Positions 735 to 6,356 of a stretch of 13,325 nucleotides of DNA are shown one piece after another (within the stretch, counting starts at the first letter, position 1; each line of letters starts with the position of its first letter). A model generated the notes under the pieces. It did not search any database and had not been told where the DNA came from. It saw only the letters and a program-made list of their open reading frames with translations. This DNA is from a virus (taxonomy: Duplodnaviria; Heunggongvirae; Uroviricota; Caudoviricetes): IMG/VR virus record IMGVR_UViG_2724679541_000003. One strand, 5' to 3'. Made by a program: the position numbers and the translations under genes.

Positions 735-1088
735 TCACGATGTGCGAATAAAAAGCCCGGGCATTGCGCCAGAGACATGTGCATCCGGCACCCCGGACAG
801 GGCGCAATATGACCCCGGTAATGAATGCTCTGAACATCCCGTAATGAAAAATTGTGGGGATGCTATATACGTTCCGGTGGGAGTACCGGGCACTGAAATC
901 CCCACCGGTCCCAGTCGTGAGCCTCTGTATGACTGCCCCCTGACAAGTCTGATGACTTTATCACCGTCAGCTTCTCCCTGGTACGCAGCAATAATCAGCC
1001 CGCCAATGTCAGGGTCTCCCCATCTGTTGCGGACAGAGCTCGCCACGATTCTGTAAATAATATCTTCTGTGGTTATATTTATTTTCAC
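735..1088 (-). CDS. Hypothetical 117-aa protein between stf and the tfa-like gene
   Basis: ORF 735..1088. The GTG start at 1086-1088 overlaps the stf TGA stop (1085-1087) as GTGA, which suggests translational coupling. The first ~55 aa (MKINITTEDIIYRIVASSVRNRWGDPDIGGLIIAAYQGEADGDKVIRLVRGQ) look protein-like; the C-terminal half is Pro/Gly/Ser-rich and may be non-coding read-through. No family recognised. Confidence 0.3.
   Translation of the reverse strand: MKINITTEDIIYRIVASSVRNRWGDPDIGGLIIAAYQGEADGDKVIRLVRGQSYRGSRLGPVGISVPGTPTGTYIASPQFFITGCSEHSLPGSYCALSGVPDAHVSGAMPGLFIRTS
763..808. repeat. Perfect 8-bp inverted repeat ATTGCGCC ... GGCGCAAT separated by 30 nt
   Basis: Plus strand 763-770 attgcgcc and 801-808 ggcgcaat are exact reverse complements; the spacer contains two CCGG motifs. 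It lies 39-85 nt upstream of the preferred tfa-like GTG start and spans the alternative ATG at 782-784. Confidence 0.5.
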
Positions 1089-2146
1089 CCAGTCAGTCTG
1101 GATATGGGCCAGTAGCGGTAGCGGGTGTGATAAATGGGGCCGTTAATGCCGTAAAAAGTAAGGGATTTGGCTCTGTACCGCGGTTCTGTTGTCTCAGGGC
1201 GTGCATCAGTCCACCGGATGCTGAGCACCCCTTCAAACCGTGTGTCGGGTATGATGATGCCGTAGGGGCCAGCAACGGAATATTCACCTGGCAGCGCATT
1301 CCTTACCCAGGCCAGGAAATCACTCTTAGTGTCAAAACGGATAACATCTTCAGGCAGAAAAGCACACCCAAAGCCGAATGCGCCGGGTATCGCCAGACGG
1401 CCTTTTGTCCGGTCGTAAATGTCGCTCTGTGCTTCCATCGTGGCCGCACTTTTCAGCCCCAGATTATCCCGGGACTTCTGTTGTGCCTTTTCGCCTGCTG
1501 CTGCGATTTCTGACAGATGGTTAGCCATTTTCAGAGTGCCGGTCAGCGCAGCATCAATGTCATTTTTGGCCTGTTCTGCTGCGCGGGCATAACCTGCGGC
1601 ATCCTGTGCGCTCTGTCCGGCTGCGGCTGCATTTGCTCCTGTGCTTGTCACATCTTCCGCAGTGGCCTTTCTGTCCTCAGCTGTGACGGTTGCATCCTGT
1701 CGGGCTTTCTCCGCAAAACGTTGTGCATCATCACGGGCCGTTGCGGCTGCCGCCACATCCTGCGCCGTCTGCTGTGCGTTTCCGGCTGCAGCCCCGGCAC
1801 TCTGCTGCGCCTGCGCCACCATTTCCTCAAAGCGCTTCATCACCTCCGGACGTAAATCACCATCCTTTGGTGCATTCAGAAACGCGTTCAGTGTCCCCGG
1901 TGCATCAGTCGGTGCCACATCAATATCCCCGACACGGGTTGGCTGCCAGCCGTTACAGTGAAGCGCAACCTCGTAATACCCCGGCTCAGCCTCAATCACA
2001 TAAGCACCGTTATTGTCCGTCACGCAAGTGGCAACAACGTGTGCCACAACGGTCGGACTGGTTCTTCTGGCCCGCAGTTCAATCGCACAATTTACGACAG
2101 GTTTACCCGCCCCATCTTTCAGTACACCTGAAATCTTTACTGCCAT
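1085..2146 (-). CDS. stf: Side tail fibre protein, Stf-like, short form (353 aa)
   Basis: N-terminus MAVKISGVLKDGAGKPVVNCAIELRARRTSPTVV closely matches the lambda Stf N-terminus as recalled (MAVKISGVLKDGTGKPVQNCTIQLKA...). ATG at 2144-2146 is preceded by GGGGTG. The ORF's upstream 14 codons (to 2188) run through the intergenic terminator hairpin and are rejected. An Ala/Gln-rich low-complexity middle is followed by a C-terminal ~110-aa domain I do not recognise. Confidence 0.8.
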   Translation of the reverse strand: MAVKISGVLKDGAGKPVVNCAIELRARRTSPTVVAHVVATCVTDNNGAYVIEAEPGYYEVALHCNGWQPTRVGDIDVAPTDAPGTLNAFLNAPKDGDLRPEVMKRFEEMVAQAQQSAGAAAGNAQQTAQDVAAAATARDDAQRFAEKARQDATVTAEDRKATAEDVTSTGANAAAAGQSAQDAAGYARAAEQAKNDIDAALTGTLKMANHLSEIAAAGEKAQQKSRDNLGLKSAATMEAQSDIYDRTKGRLAIPGAFGFGCAFLPEDVIRFDTKSDFLAWVRNALPGEYSVAGPYGIIIPDTRFEGVLSIRWTDARPETTEPRYRAKSLTFYGINGPIYHTRYRYWPISRLTG

Positions 2147-2153
2147 ATTCACC

Positions 2154-2183
2154 CCACAAAAAGCCCGCCTGAACCAGCGGGCT
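2154..2183 (-). terminator. Intrinsic terminator-like hairpin between lom and stf
   Basis: Minus-strand RNA: AGCCCGC-UGGUUCAG-GCGGGCU (7-bp stem, plus coordinates 2162-2168 / 2177-2183) followed by UUUUGUGGGG. It sits 27 nt after the lom stop and just upstream of the stf RBS. Confidence 0.5.
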
Positions 2184-2209
2184 GTCATAACACTGTGTTA
2201 CCTGGCTAA

Positions 2210-2830: not shown

Positions 2831-2857
2831 AATAAAAAAGGCACCATTTCTGGTGCC
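2831..2857 (-). terminator. Rho-independent terminator between J and lom
   Basis: Minus-strand RNA: GGCACCA-GAAA-UGGUGCC (7-bp stem, plus coordinates 2840-2846 / 2851-2857) followed directly by UUUUUUAUU (plus 2831-2839). Strong canonical architecture. Confidence 0.65.
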
Positions 2858-2876
2858 CGTATCTGGGTTATAAAAT

Positions 2877-5800
2877 TCAGCTGATACTGATACCTGCTGT
2901 GGATTTCTTCATCACAACAACCAGCAAATCGCTGATACTTGCTGTGGGATACCAGCCATTTACCAGCCATGCCGATACAGAAAACTCCAGCGTCATGTGA
3001 CCGTGACCGGCAGGCATATCAATAACACCCGTATATATCAGCGTATTATCCAGGGTCGTTCGGTTATAAATTTCAGCACCGTTTTTCTTCACTATCAGGC
3101 GGCATGACGAATAAATATTGTTATTCTTCCGCTCATGTTTAGCACCGCGAAACGCCACCGCGGGAATAACAATTTGCCGATCAAACGGCTGATCGTCATA
3201 AACCCTGACGGTAATGGTCCCTGATGGCCACCTCTCCGGTGCCCGGGAGTCCCGTGGGAAAGGTTTGCCCACTGTTTTAACGAGATCGCCTTCAATCTGG
3301 TTCGCGGACAATTTTCCCAGAACCCGACAGTTCTTATTAATCGTGACGTTGTTGAGCGTCCCGGAGTTCGCGTTCACGTTACCGCTGATATCGGCATTTT
3401 TCGCCGTCAGCCGTCCGCCAGGTGTCAGGGAAAATGCCGGAGGATTACCGCCGCTGGTAATGGTCGGAGCCGTCAGGCGTTTCAGGAACACGTCGTTCAT
3501 GAATATCTGATCGCCCTGACCAACAAACATCGGCTTTGTGTTGCCATTCGCAGGATTAATCATCGCAATCCTGTCTGCCGCCAGCAGCACCTGACTCTGC
3601 ATTCCTGCTGGCGTATTCTCAATACCGGCACCGATACCCGCAATATAAAGGCGTCCGTCCTTCATCTGTTGCAGCTTCACAGCCCACATGCTGTTCAGGT
3701 TATTATTTGTATCAACCTGAACTTTCTGTATCTGCTGGATTGCAGCACTCTGATTTTCCAGTTTTTTATTGACGGTTTGCGTGATTTCATTGCTGACATT
3801 CGTAATGGACGTCCTGATTTCAGTCAGGTCCGGCGCAAGCTGACCGTTATCAATCTGCGTCCACAACTCCTTGCCGAGATGCGTTTTATTGATCAACCCT
3901 TTATAAAAACTCAGATAACCTTCCGCATCATCGCTCGCCCGACCGACGGCCTCCACAAATGCCGATTTGCCAACGGTGTTCACACTGCGAACGTAAAAAT
4001 AATAATCATGGCCCGGCCTGATATTGATACTGGCGGCTATCCAGTACAGCGCCGTGCCAAGATAGCGGGCGCTGGTTTCAACCTGCCTGATATCCGCAAT
4101 CCGCTTTTCCGAAAACCAGAACTCAAACTGCACCGTCGGGTCATATACAGCCAGTTTCGGGACCACCGTTATCTGAAAATACCCCGGTATCAGTTCAATA
4201 GTGACAGGCGCTGCCGGTGCCGCAATCCGGAACGATACCGACGCCGGATCGCCCTGCTGCCCCCGGGCATTTACCGCCCGGACTGTCAGACTGTAATTCC
4301 CCAGCGCCAGCTGCCTGAAGCGGTATGTGGTTTCCGTCGTCCTGGCTGTGCTGACCAGCCGCTCACTGCCGTCGTCCGCTGCCACGGTCAGGCGAAGCAG
4401 GAAGCTCACACCCTTCACCACCTTCGGCGTGTCCCATCGCGCCAGCACCTGATATTCCCCGCTGTCTGCGGTGACTTCGGCGGTCAGATGCTGCACCGCT
4501 GGCGGCGTGACACCATTCACCGTGCCGCGCCGGTCACCGTCAAAGTGTGCCCCGTTATCCACGATGGCCTCTTTTTCCGGCACATGCTGCACGGCGGTGA
4601 TGGCATACGTGCCGTCGTCGTTCTCACGGATACTCACGCAGCGGAACAGGCGCTGGCGCAGCGTCGGCAGCTTCAGCCCCCACACGCTGTATTCTGCAAC
4701 GCCGTCAGGAACCCGGCTCACTTTCACCTTCACGCCGTCGGTGACGGACTGAACCTCCACGCTGACCGGATTGCCATTTCCGTCAACCAGGCTTATCAGC
4801 GTGGTACCGGAGGACGGCAGCGTGATTTCACGGTCGAGCGTCAGCGTCCGGGTCTGGCTGTTCACCGCCAGTACGCGACCACCGGTGCTGATACCGGCAT
4901 AATCATCATCGCAGATTTCAATGACATCACCCGGTACATGGCGAAGCCCTTCTGCGCCGACGCTGAAGTCCACGGTCTGCGTTTCCAGCAGTTCCGTTTT
5001 AATCAGCCACAGCCCGGCGCGGTGCGCCTGTCCCCGGCTGGTACAGCCAAAGGCATCCATCTTCGTGACGTTACGACCGTAACGGACAATGGCCTGCGTG
5101 TCCTCCACAAGCTCTGTCGCCGTCTCATGACCGTTGTCCGGATCAATCCAGTTCACCTCAACGACATTATGGCGGTCCTTCAGGGCGCTGAAGCTGTAGC
5201 GGAACGGCGCGCCATCATCCGGCATCACCACATTACTGCGGTTATAGGTCCACACTTTATCCGACGGTCGGTCCTGCACGAACGTCAGCGTCTGCCCGTT
5301 CCATACCGGCATACAGCGCATCGCCGAGCAGAAATCACTGAGAACATCCCACGCCTTACGCTGTGTGGTCAGGTAAGCGTTACAGGTGATGCGCGGCTCC
5401 GTGCCGCCAAATCCGTCCGGCACTGACTGGTCGCAGTACTGGCCGATGACATACAGCGCCCATTTGTCCACATCTGCCGCACCAAGACGTTTCCCCATGC
5501 CGTAGCGCGGATGAGTGAGCATGTCCCACAGACACCAGGCCATGTTGTTGCTGTATGCTGGCTTAAGCGTTCCGTCCCAGATACCGCTGTATTGCCGCGT
5601 CTGCGGGTTATAGTTCGACGGCACCTGCAGAATGCGCCCGCGAAGATGATAATTGCGACTCACCTGCTGGTTACCGAACTGCTCTGAATCCACCTGCACG
5701 CCGACCAGCGCCGTGTTCGGGTAGCACTGTTTCACATCGATGATTTCGGTGTACGACGACCAGAGCGTTTTGTTCTGCAGCTGGTCTGTGGTGCTGTCCG

Positions 5801-6356
5801 GTGTCATCCTGCGCATCCGGATATTAAACGGGCGCGGCGGCAGGTTACCCACCACCACCGAGGCCAGATACTGCGAAGTGGTTTTGCCCTTAATGGTGAT
5901 GTCTTTTTCCGTCACCCAGCCACCGTTACGCTGTATCTGAACCAGCAGGCGGACTTCCGACGGATTCCGGTCCCCCTTTGAGGTGGTTTCCACCAGTGCC
6001 TGCACACCGAAGGTCAGGCGCAGACGATCAATGTTTGCCGACGTGATGGTCCGGGTGATCGGCGTGTCGTATTTCACTTCCGTACCCAGCACAGTCTCTG
6101 AGCCGGAAGATTCAAACCCCTCCGGCGGTGTCTGCTCCTGCTCGCCGGCGCGGAACACCACCGTAACACCGGAAAAGTTTGTCTTCCCCTCGCTATCCAG
6201 GACCGGCGTACCGTTCAGCAGCACGCTTTTTAATCCATCCACCGGACCGTCAACCGGCCCTTCGCTGATGGCATCAATCACACTCAGCAACTGCGTGGAT
6301 TTCAGGTTGTCCTTCGCTTCGCGCGGGGTATGCCCCTTACTGCTGCCTTTACCCAT
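2877..6356 (-). CDS. J: Central tail fibre / host specificity protein J (1159 aa)
   Basis: N-terminal ~850 aa is near-identical to lambda gpJ as recalled ([34 protein letters not shown] ...), including fibronectin-III-like segments. ATG at 6354-6356 with GGAG 8 nt upstream; TGA at 2877-2879. The C-terminal ~250-300 aa diverges from lambda. Confidence 0.95.

Follow-up and report, generated by a model that had tools for sequence, protein, structure and literature searches.

The tail-tip attachment (host-specificity) gene J in this stretch of phage DNA raised the questions of how far its product departs from that of lambda, how the departure arose and which receptor its tip would bind. The window, as used here, is the whole stretch of DNA analysed (13,325 nt). 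J lies on its minus strand (2877–6356) as an intact open reading frame of 1159 codons plus stop, according to the ORF list and translation. The protein matched the NCBIfam model lambda_TipJ (NF049904) end to end (protein 1–1159, model 1–1163) with 2356.8 bits, against a cut-off of 1950. Pfam domains were FNIII-A_GpJ (aa 86–207), Phage-tail_3 (330–498), Ig_J (611–714) and Ig_J_second (716–817) in the N-terminal part, and Phage_Tail_Tip (872–1000) and Ig_GpJ_C ("C-terminal receptor binding domain", 1030–1159) in the C-terminal part. Their order runs from the hub through two Ig/FNIII domains and a tail-tip fibre to a receptor-binding Ig domain at the C-terminus, as in lambda TipJ/gpJ.

J sits in a lambda-like prophage, and the tail cluster H-M-L-K-I-J-lom-stf is common to a near-identical FDAARGOS_943 locus, lambda, phage 21 and PhiR55_1. 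A consensus scan, the only basis for this feature, indicated a hairpin resembling a terminator, with a run of T after it, in the interval from the J stop codon to lom (2839–2858, minus strand). An annotated terminator follows J at the equivalent position in phage 21. Promoter-like sites in and near the J region occurred only at chance level in the consensus scan, and Rfam gave no matches across the whole window. An antisense ORF of 585 codons located wholly within J (3669–5426) is most probably spurious, a by-product of the G+C richness of the coding strand.

The initial annotation described a J protein that is lambda-like except for its last 250–300 residues, with a sharp transition and a few conserved islands. 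Comparison with lambda J (NC_001416, NP_040600; 1132 aa) agreed with this outline. Overall identity was 82% (BLASTP). In MAFFT-based counts, 780 of 815 residues were identical in aa 1–815 (95.7%), against 168 of 344 in aa 816–1159 (48.8%; Fisher exact p = 2.5e-74); the C-terminal part is thus far less conserved than the rest. The transition is indeed sharp, with nucleotide identity dropping from 0.94 to 0.57 to 0.18 in successive 90-nt windows. All four islands that had been quoted are present and conserved with respect to lambda (MWAVK, a 29-mer that is identical, a 15-mer and DMPAG). The extent of the divergence had been underestimated. It covers 344 residues, starting at aa 816 (window position ~3911); the range originally given, 2877–3700, spans only aa 886–1159, and the divergence begins about 210 nt beyond it. 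The peptide quoted as its start (SFYKGLINK...) lies outside that range as well, at 3840–3911. Moreover, the divergent part is bipartite: identity to lambda is 23% in aa 816–871, 68% in aa 872–1005 and 40% in aa 1006–1159, so that a better conserved beta-prism separates two divergent pieces, a helical shaft and an Ig-like receptor-binding domain (RBD).

With the domain names of the lambda cryo-EM study (PMC11101478), J was divided into four modules, all on the minus strand. The lambda-type N-terminal module (aa 1–815; 3912–6356) consists of the hub domains and two FNIII/Ig domains. It is 95–96% identical in amino acids to the J proteins of lambda, 434, 21, 2G7b and PhiR55_1 and 72–74% identical to those of Stx phages. 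The alpha-helical shaft (AHS, aa 816–871; 3744–3911) is of the phage 21 type, with 23% identity to lambda versus 83–85% to phage 21, PhiR55_1 and WGPS6. It is about 28 residues longer than lambda's, 81 nt being absent from lambda, and its GC content is 0.435 compared with 0.589 in the N-terminal module. Helices were predicted at aa 811–823, 826–836 and 844–899 by AlphaFold2 in a single-sequence monomer model, which may overextend the helix into the beta-prism of the trimer. The 5' recombination junction lies at about 3866–3912.

The beta-prism, or central straight fiber (CSF, aa 872–1001; 3354–3743; Phage_Tail_Tip at aa 872–1000), is 94–95% identical to those of phage 21, PhiR55_1 and WGPS6, compared with 68% for lambda; the 29-mer shared with lambda lies within it. 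Window J thus combines the extra helical segment of about 28 residues with the high prism identity that characterize the phage-21-type shaft. A conserved linker of 28 residues (aa 983–1010; 3327–3410) marks the CSF/RBD boundary. In nucleotide alignment, the J genes of phage 21, PhiR55_1 and WGPS2 are near-identical within this linker and differ on either side. Over aa 985–1024, five RBD classes have a mean pairwise identity of 0.81, and in the A8 chimera lambda-like sequence gives way to donor-like sequence here as well. The linker is therefore likely the crossover site for RBD exchange. Beyond it lies the RBD (aa 1002–1159; 2880–3353; Ig_GpJ_C at aa 1030–1159), an Ig-like beta-sandwich of the class found in 2G7b, WGPS2, PhiR55_1 and VT1-Sakai. 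RBD identity is 91–92% to 2G7b, WGPS2 and PhiR55_1, 65% to phage 21, 62% to the Stx1/A8 class, 41% to 434 and 40% to lambda.

The modules assort among phages. Expressed as amino acid identity to window J over aa 1–815, 816–871, 872–1005 and 1006–1159, respectively, values were 95, 23, 68 and 40% for lambda and 434, 95, 23, 69 and 92% for 2G7b, 95, 83, 94 and 65% for phage 21, 96, 83, 95 and 91% for PhiR55_1, 74, 85, 94 and 40% for WGPS6, 72, 55, 69 and 92% for WGPS2, and 73, 51, 70 and 62% for Stx1_120412. Across these eight other phage J genes, shaft and RBD assort independently. The dS to lambda is 0.23 in aa 1–815 (dN/dS 0.10); it is saturated in the shaft and reaches 1.08 in the prism and 2.0 in the RBD. 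Together, the jump in dS and the independent assortment of shaft and RBD point to recombination rather than fast point mutation. A module swap had been suggested from the sharp transition; recombination is well supported by the dS step and by the recombined modules elsewhere, and at least two exchanges (shaft and RBD) are needed instead of one. Within the RBD, an internal patch (aa 1051–1110) diverges and also has raised dS, which again indicates recombination.

Two explanations would dispense with such exchanges. Diversifying selection is known to have hot spots in the receptor-binding regions of phages, and among 1207 J homologues variation clusters in residues 960–1132 (PMC6646904), so the divergence might have arisen in place by rapid point mutation. 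This is extremely unlikely, since dS to lambda increases 5- to 10-fold or reaches saturation precisely at the boundary, with dN/dS remaining at 0.1–0.3, and since the breakpoints, visible at the nucleotide level, fall in conserved linkers. The same RBD (91–92% in amino acids, dS 0.34–0.40) also occurs on the WGPS2 backbone, where dS is ~1.0 in the N-terminal part and 0.34 in the RBD, and on the lambda-type shaft of 2G7b. Gene-wide positive selection within the RBD class was likewise rejected at a dN/dS of 0.10–0.16; the values of 0.10–0.11 indicate purifying selection. The other explanation is drift in a non-functional gene of a decaying prophage. The side-tail-fibre gene stf is frameshifted and split by a 4-bp deletion, an IS91 element adjoins the prophage end, and the tail genes of related copies in other strains contain IS insertions and frameshifts. 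Given the stf frameshift and the IS91 element, this prophage may be defective, so that the function of this J copy is not guaranteed. Drift is nevertheless very unlikely as the source of the divergence, because J is an uninterrupted ORF of 1159 codons with full-length matches to curated family models, because RBD dN/dS is 0.10–0.11, and because the RBD recurs with 100% identity in a 351-sequence cluster and with 91–92% in plaque-forming phages.

That cluster consists of Shigella and E. coli sequences, and the RBD amino acid sequence is unchanged in its Shigella entries. About 2,530 E. coli genome records contain the class as a whole at ≥90% nucleotide identity. It occurs in roughly half of the complete E. 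coli genome records, where it is the most common J tip found. The window RBD belongs to it with 91–93% identity and no indels (tblastn and pairwise alignment). Recombination of shaft and RBD in J is real but ordinary: this variant is very common in prophages of E. coli and Shigella, and the phenomenon is already well documented. Exchange of modules and hypervariability in the specificity region of J are on record in the study of 1207 natural homologues (PMC6646904), in a paper on deep mutational scanning that explicitly cites the divergent 2G7b tip (bioRxiv 10.1101/2020.06.25.171868), in engineered gpJ chimeras retargeted to OmpC (PMC11338833) and in the solved structures 8XCJ and 9WCB.

Structure prediction of the C-terminal domain gave an Ig-like fold. 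The AlphaFold2 model, a monomer for which the underlying alignment was shallow (19 close homologues), had a pLDDT of 76 overall and 80–96 in the core. The best Foldseek matches were A8 gpJ in the closed state (9wca) and in the open state with OmpC (9wcb), followed by lambda gpJ in the closed state (8xck) and with LamB (8xcj), with TM scores of 0.70–0.72. These four entries also headed the sequence matches among solved structures. The initial annotation had assigned LamB binding to the whole of the last 250–300 residues of lambda J; only the last ~155 residues of window J correspond to the LamB-contacting domain of lambda J. As the RBD is 40% identical to lambda over aa 1006–1159, it does not qualify as a lambda-type LamB-binding RBD (lambda J ~975–1132, L1–L4) in the sense of close identity.

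Variation among the five RBD classes is concentrated in four loops, in which inter-class identity is 0.11–0.39, compared with 0.63–1.0 in the intervening loops. Loop A (aa 1032–1045, 14 residues; 3222–3263, minus strand; mean identity 0.29, six indel columns) corresponds to the lambda residue-1012 hot spot, S1012 of lambda mapping to P1040. Residue 1012 is critical for gain of OmpF function in lambda, and both indels and entropy peak there in the 1207 natural homologues (PMC6646904). Loop B (aa 1071–1080, 10 residues; 3117–3146, minus strand; 0.29, six indel columns) corresponds to lambda 1048–1049, which map to 1076 and 1077. It holds four differences between the window and PhiR55_1, WGPS2 and 2G7b (K1077E, N1078H, N1079T and N1080D), a cluster that falls in the divergent internal patch and marks a sub-variant. 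Loop C (aa 1102–1105, LDNT; 3042–3053, minus strand; 0.11) corresponds to lambda 1077–1078. Loop D (aa 1133–1143, 11 residues; 2928–2960, minus strand; 0.39, indels at the edge) corresponds to the hot spot at lambda residue 1107, also critical for gain of OmpF function (PMC6646904); D1107 of lambda maps to W1135. These loops and their edges hold almost all indel columns of the RBD, and the loops coincide with the entropy and indel peaks at lambda 1012, 1048/9, 1077/8 and 1107 in the 1207 homologues. Compared with lambda, 28% of the residues in the four loops are identical, versus 45% in the remaining Ig core.

A receptor other than lambda's LamB, as the initial annotation had suggested, is plausible judging from the sequence. 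A8 gpJ and the 434-class phi330 use OmpC, as does a second gpJ chimera, 1A2 (Brodel et al.), with OmpC of the EDL933 type rather than that of K-12. An RBD identity of ~40% alone does not predict loss of LamB, because phage 21, equally far from lambda, has LamB as its reported native receptor. The phage 21 RBD is as close to that of the window (65%) as A8's. A single J mutation gives phage 21 OmpC, and both OmpC and OmpF can be reached by mutation; receptor identity is thus not readable from overall similarity. It follows that the window RBD could be a divergent allele that still uses LamB; its differences would then have arisen as it adapted to variant forms of LamB or escaped exclusion. The example of phage 21 and its one-step move to OmpC speak for this. 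We nonetheless consider it rather unlikely, because the closest solved structure and a nearly equally close natural class (A8/Stx1, 62–65%) bind OmpC, and because all four receptor-contact loops differ between window and phage 21, with indels in A and B. Less probable still, and doubtful in our view, is that the class recognises a receptor or a spectrum of receptor alleles not assigned to any lambdoid J, which may be, for example, a set of OmpC alleles that excludes that of K-12 or a porin other than LamB, OmpC and OmpF. The loop-B patch in the Shigella/EIEC-like sub-variant may then retune specificity, and the longer shaft could alter the relay. The literature on member phages, long-tailed Stx phages and gpJ/OmpC, in a search that took in 2G7b, PhiR55_1, vB_EcoS-640R1, Chlobot and PPompW, named no receptor for this class. 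None of the six class members among the PhiR phages is recorded with K-12 MG1655 as propagation host, versus 5 of 24 PhiR-type records overall; the probability of this by chance is ~20% (hypergeometric, calculated by hand), and the comparison was not used as evidence.

Taken together, the 3' third of J is assembled from exchangeable modules in mosaic fashion and is not a locally fast-evolving lambda J, and it probably forms a porin-docking tip for which altered specificity is to be expected. A lambda-type hub/FNIII part (aa 1–815), a phage-21-type shaft (aa 816–~1001) and a widespread RBD class (aa ~1002–1159) were probably joined by homologous recombination at conserved stretches, namely the end of FNIII-2 and start of the shaft, and the linker before the RBD. 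In lambda, gpJ has the order HD-FNIII-AHS-CSF-RBD, its four bottom loops L1–L4 insert into LamB and a conformational relay follows (PMC11101478). By homology with the lambda–LamB and A8–OmpC complexes, three RBDs would stand at the tip of the trimeric fibre, with four distal loops inserted in a trimeric porin of the outer membrane. A distal rather than a proximal position of these loops is suggested by strand order, the published lambda description and the published variation peaks. Binding would be relayed up the prism and the helical shaft, leading to opening of the tail tip. Since the four loops are where the RBD differs most from other classes, its binding specificity would be expected to differ from that of lambda. 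OmpC would be the most likely receptor, with LamB as a possible one. With a receptor assigned to this class, the host range of lambdoid and long-tailed Stx prophages would become easier to predict, and engineered lambda-based delivery particles would gain an extra tip option.

Among known systems, lambda gpJ (8IYK, 8XCK, and 8XCJ with LamB) belongs to the same family and shares the full domain order and the RBD fold (TM 0.72). It differs in its shorter shaft (by ~28 residues, 23% identical) and in its RBD (40%), in which all four receptor loops differ, and dS is saturated in these parts. Phage 21 J has the same long shaft (83%), prism (94%) and lambda-type N-terminal part (95%), but its RBD is only 65% identical (dS 2.3), with all four receptor-contact loops different and indels in loops A and B. 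The J proteins of the OmpC users 434 and WGPS6-phi330 belong to the same family and have the same Ig-like RBD fold class; that of WGPS6 has a phage-21-type shaft like the window's (85% and 94%), yet at 40–41% identity both RBDs form a separate class.

The best solved match was A8 gpJ, a chimera of the Stx1-phage class (9WCA, and 9WCB with OmpC of E. coli EDL933; sequence E = 5.6e-120). It is 64–65% identical to window J over the 175 modelled residues (TM 0.70–0.72), and its C-terminal strand of 19 residues is identical. The RBD proper is 62% identical, and loops C and D differ in sequence. Loop lengths differ in A (11 residues in the window versus PRTN----SY in A8) and B (KHERKNNN----- versus KHENFNSNNQQSYW). 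With 62–65% identity and these indels, the window RBD lies outside the A8/Stx1 class, for which near-identity and equal loop lengths were taken as the criterion. The same RBD class as in the window (91–92% in amino acids, dS 0.34–0.40) occurs in 2G7b, Stx2a_WGPS2, PhiR55_1 and VT1-Sakai, from which the patch at aa 1051–1110 sets the window copy apart. A published account gives the 2G7b RBD 40–60% identity to that of lambda and links it to a distinct host range. 2G7b J differs from window J in having the short shaft of lambda, and WGPS2 J in its Stx-type backbone, while PhiR55_1 J has all four modules in common with it, at ~93% nucleotide identity across the gene.

The window is a lambdoid prophage tail module. 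The best-matching complete E. coli genome was 98.8% identical over 99% of the window length; the genes run in the order tail tube ... G, T, H, M, L, K, I, J, lom, stf, tfa. The J gene (2877–6356, minus strand) was a 1159-codon ORF whose product matched the NCBIfam lambda_TipJ model end to end (2356.8 bits; cut-off 1950). Pfam placed FNIII-A_GpJ and Phage-tail_3 N-terminal to Ig_J (aa 611–714), followed by Ig_J_second (aa 716–817), Phage_Tail_Tip (aa 872–1000) and Ig_GpJ_C (aa 1030–1159), the latter described as ‘C-terminal receptor binding domain’.

The interval separating the stop codon of J from lom held a hairpin with a T run after it, resembling a terminator (2839–2858, minus strand); in phage 21, a terminator is annotated at the equivalent place. 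A 585-codon ORF with a TTG start (3669–5426, plus strand), antisense to J and wholly within it, is most probably an artefact, caused by the high G+C content of the coding strand. Downstream, stf (735–2188, minus strand) was split into two ORFs in different frames (1085–2188 and 735–1088) due to a 4-bp deletion at about 1099, as compared with the intact 470-aa gene of E. coli FDAARGOS_943. Laboratory lambda has a similar stf frameshift, and the deletion could be a sequencing error. Positions 1–160, adjoining the tail-fibre assembly gene (DUF4376, 161–784) at its stop codon, were 99.4% identical to the end of a mostly plasmid-borne IS91-family transposase element, in place of which related E. 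coli strains carried an ipaH effector gene.

J was 82% identical overall to lambda J (NC_001416; BLASTP), and the identity was very unevenly distributed: 780/815 residues (95.7%) in aa 1–815 versus 168/344 (48.8%) in aa 816–1159 (Fisher exact p = 2.5e-74). Nucleotide identity to lambda, in steps of 90 nt, fell from 0.94 to 0.57 to 0.18. The C-terminal divergence described in the initial annotation was thus confirmed by pairwise alignment, and all four short conserved islands named there were found in J. Its extent had been underestimated: the range 2877–3700 covers only aa 886–1159, whereas divergence started at aa 816 (window 3911) and spanned 344 rather than 250–300 residues. The divergent part was not uniform. 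Identity to lambda was 23% in the alpha-helical shaft (AHS, aa 816–871), 68% in the beta-prism ‘central straight fiber’ (CSF, aa 872–1005) and 40% in the Ig-like receptor-binding domain (RBD, aa 1006–1159). The AHS was about 28 residues longer than in lambda, with 81 nt absent from the latter. The GC content of the AHS module (3744–3911) was 0.435 versus 0.589 for the N-terminal portion of the gene; that of the lambda shaft was also lowered, but less (0.494).

We compared J with those of eight phages, by amino acid identity in the hub plus FNIII domains, AHS, CSF and RBD, respectively: lambda (95, 23, 68 and 40%), lambda h434 (95, 23, 67 and 41%), 2G7b (95, 23, 69 and 92%), phage 21 (95, 83, 94 and 65%), PhiR55_1 (96, 83, 95 and 91%), Stx2a_WGPS6 (74, 85, 94 and 40%), Stx2a_WGPS2 (72, 55, 69 and 92%) and Stx1_120412 (73, 51, 70 and 62%). 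Since the module identities varied separately, backbone, shaft and tip assort independently. Two junctions were seen at the nucleotide level. At the 5′ junction (about window 3866–3912), the sequence was lambda-like through GAAGGTTATCTG, followed by a short unique patch and then phage-21-like sequence. The RBD junction lay inside a conserved 28-residue linker (window 3327–3410), in which J genes unlike on either flank converged to near-identity. In the engineered chimera A8 gpJ, the switch from lambda to donor is at the same point. Within the second Ig/FNIII domain, 4107–4196 (J aa 721–750) had only 79–82% nucleotide identity to every lambda-type J gene and 86–87% to Stx-phage-type genes, which suggests a small gene-conversion patch in an otherwise lambda-type backbone.

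Accelerated amino acid change in place would also make the C-terminus of J diverge. This was contradicted by the steps in synonymous divergence and by a dN/dS of 0.10–0.11 inside the RBD class of the window. Relative to lambda, dS was 0.23 in the N-terminal part, saturated in the AHS, 1.08 in the CSF and 2.0 in the RBD; relative to WGPS2, it was about 1.0 in the N-terminal part and 0.34 in the RBD. This pattern is a signature of recombination between diverged lineages. A similar choice arose inside the RBD, which differed from those of 2G7b, WGPS2 and PhiR55_1 by 11–13 residues, 8–9 of them in aa 1051–1110 (window 3027–3206). In these same-class comparisons, non-synonymous difference was raised there relative to the flanks, and pS was raised too (0.43–0.48 vs 0.16–0.22), which marks the segment as a further small recombination patch rather than a site of local positive selection. 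The module swap proposed in the initial annotation was therefore supported by module identities and dS, and resolves into two exchanged modules and one patch inside the RBD. The RBD sequence, patch included, was present unchanged in Shigella entries, and the best-matching EIEC-like E. coli genomes were 98.7–99.8% identical to it at the DNA level.

In the cryo-EM structure of lambda gpJ, which extends from hub domains and two FNIII domains to an Ig-like RBD, four bottom loops (L1–L4) are inserted into LamB, and binding is relayed up prism and shaft to tail opening (PMC11101478). In a single-sequence AlphaFold2 model of aa 800–900, the inserted segment was helical throughout, and a second model, of aa 985–1159, showed a confident beta-sandwich core (pLDDT 80–96). 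The top PDB matches of the latter were A8 gpJ 713, closed (9WCA) and open with OmpC (9WCB; 64–65% identity, TM 0.70–0.72), followed by lambda J, closed (8XCK) and with LamB (8XCJ; 46% identity). A PDB sequence search gave the same ranking.

When five RBD classes were compared by one representative each (window, 21, Stx1/A8, lambda, 434), mean pairwise identity was lowest in four loops: A (aa 1032–1045; 0.29), B (aa 1071–1080; 0.29), C (aa 1102–1105; 0.11) and D (aa 1133–1143; 0.39). Almost all indel columns fell inside these loops or at their margins, and the intervening loops (YDDQPFD, NG, PAGHGH) had identities of 0.63–1.0. In loop B, the cluster K1077E, N1078H, N1079T and N1080D set the window RBD apart from 2G7b, WGPS2 and PhiR55_1. 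Lambda positions 1012, 1048/1049, 1077/1078 and 1107, which are peaks of amino acid and indel entropy among 1207 natural J homologues (Maddamsetti et al., PMC6646904), mapped to 1040, 1076/1077, 1105/1106 and 1135, each within or directly beside one of loops A–D. Residues 1012 and 1107 were critical when lambda gained OmpF use in the laboratory (PMC6646904). We infer that loops A–D would correspond to the distal loops L1–L4.

For related tips, experimentally supported receptors are LamB for lambda, OmpC for 434, the 434-class phage phi330 and A8 (its RBD near-identical to the Stx1-phage class), and OmpC plus others for Gifsy-1. Phage 21 natively uses LamB and gained OmpC via a single J mutation. 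The window RBD was about equally distant from the A8 (62% identity) and phage 21 (65%) classes, with all four loops unlike both, and therefore similarity cannot decide the receptor. Our literature search found no paper assigning one to this RBD class, to which 1A2, a second chimera that uses OmpC, might belong. The receptor is very likely a trimeric porin. By rough estimate, OmpC has about an even chance, LamB is possible but rather unlikely, and another receptor takes the remainder. A receptor switch relative to lambda, thought probable in the initial annotation, is a reasonable hypothesis. The six plaque-forming phages of ECOR origin that carry this RBD class (PV340545, PV340560, PV340565, PV340566, PV340570 and PV340571) all had E. 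coli C or ECOR13 as recorded host and none had K-12 MG1655, an absence that is not significant (about 0.2 by chance, hand-calculated). These records would fit a receptor allele absent from K-12.

RBD DNA was matched in 3782 of 5426 complete E. coli genomes, with about 2,530 records at an identity of at least 90%. At the amino acid level, the RBD matched at 100% identity the representative of a cluster with 351 members, among them entries from Shigella sonnei, flexneri, dysenteriae and boydii. The class was carried by 54 records of the phage collection (90–95% amino acid identity), including many long-tailed Stx2a phages, PPompW prophages, VT1-Sakai, 2G7b and several plaque-forming ECOR prophages. 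Both J tip exchange and this RBD allele class are already known. Andrews & Fields cite for 2G7b a distinct host range and a J protein >97% identical to that of lambda over 982 residues, but only 40–60% identical in the last ~150 (bioRxiv 10.1101/2020.06.25.171868).
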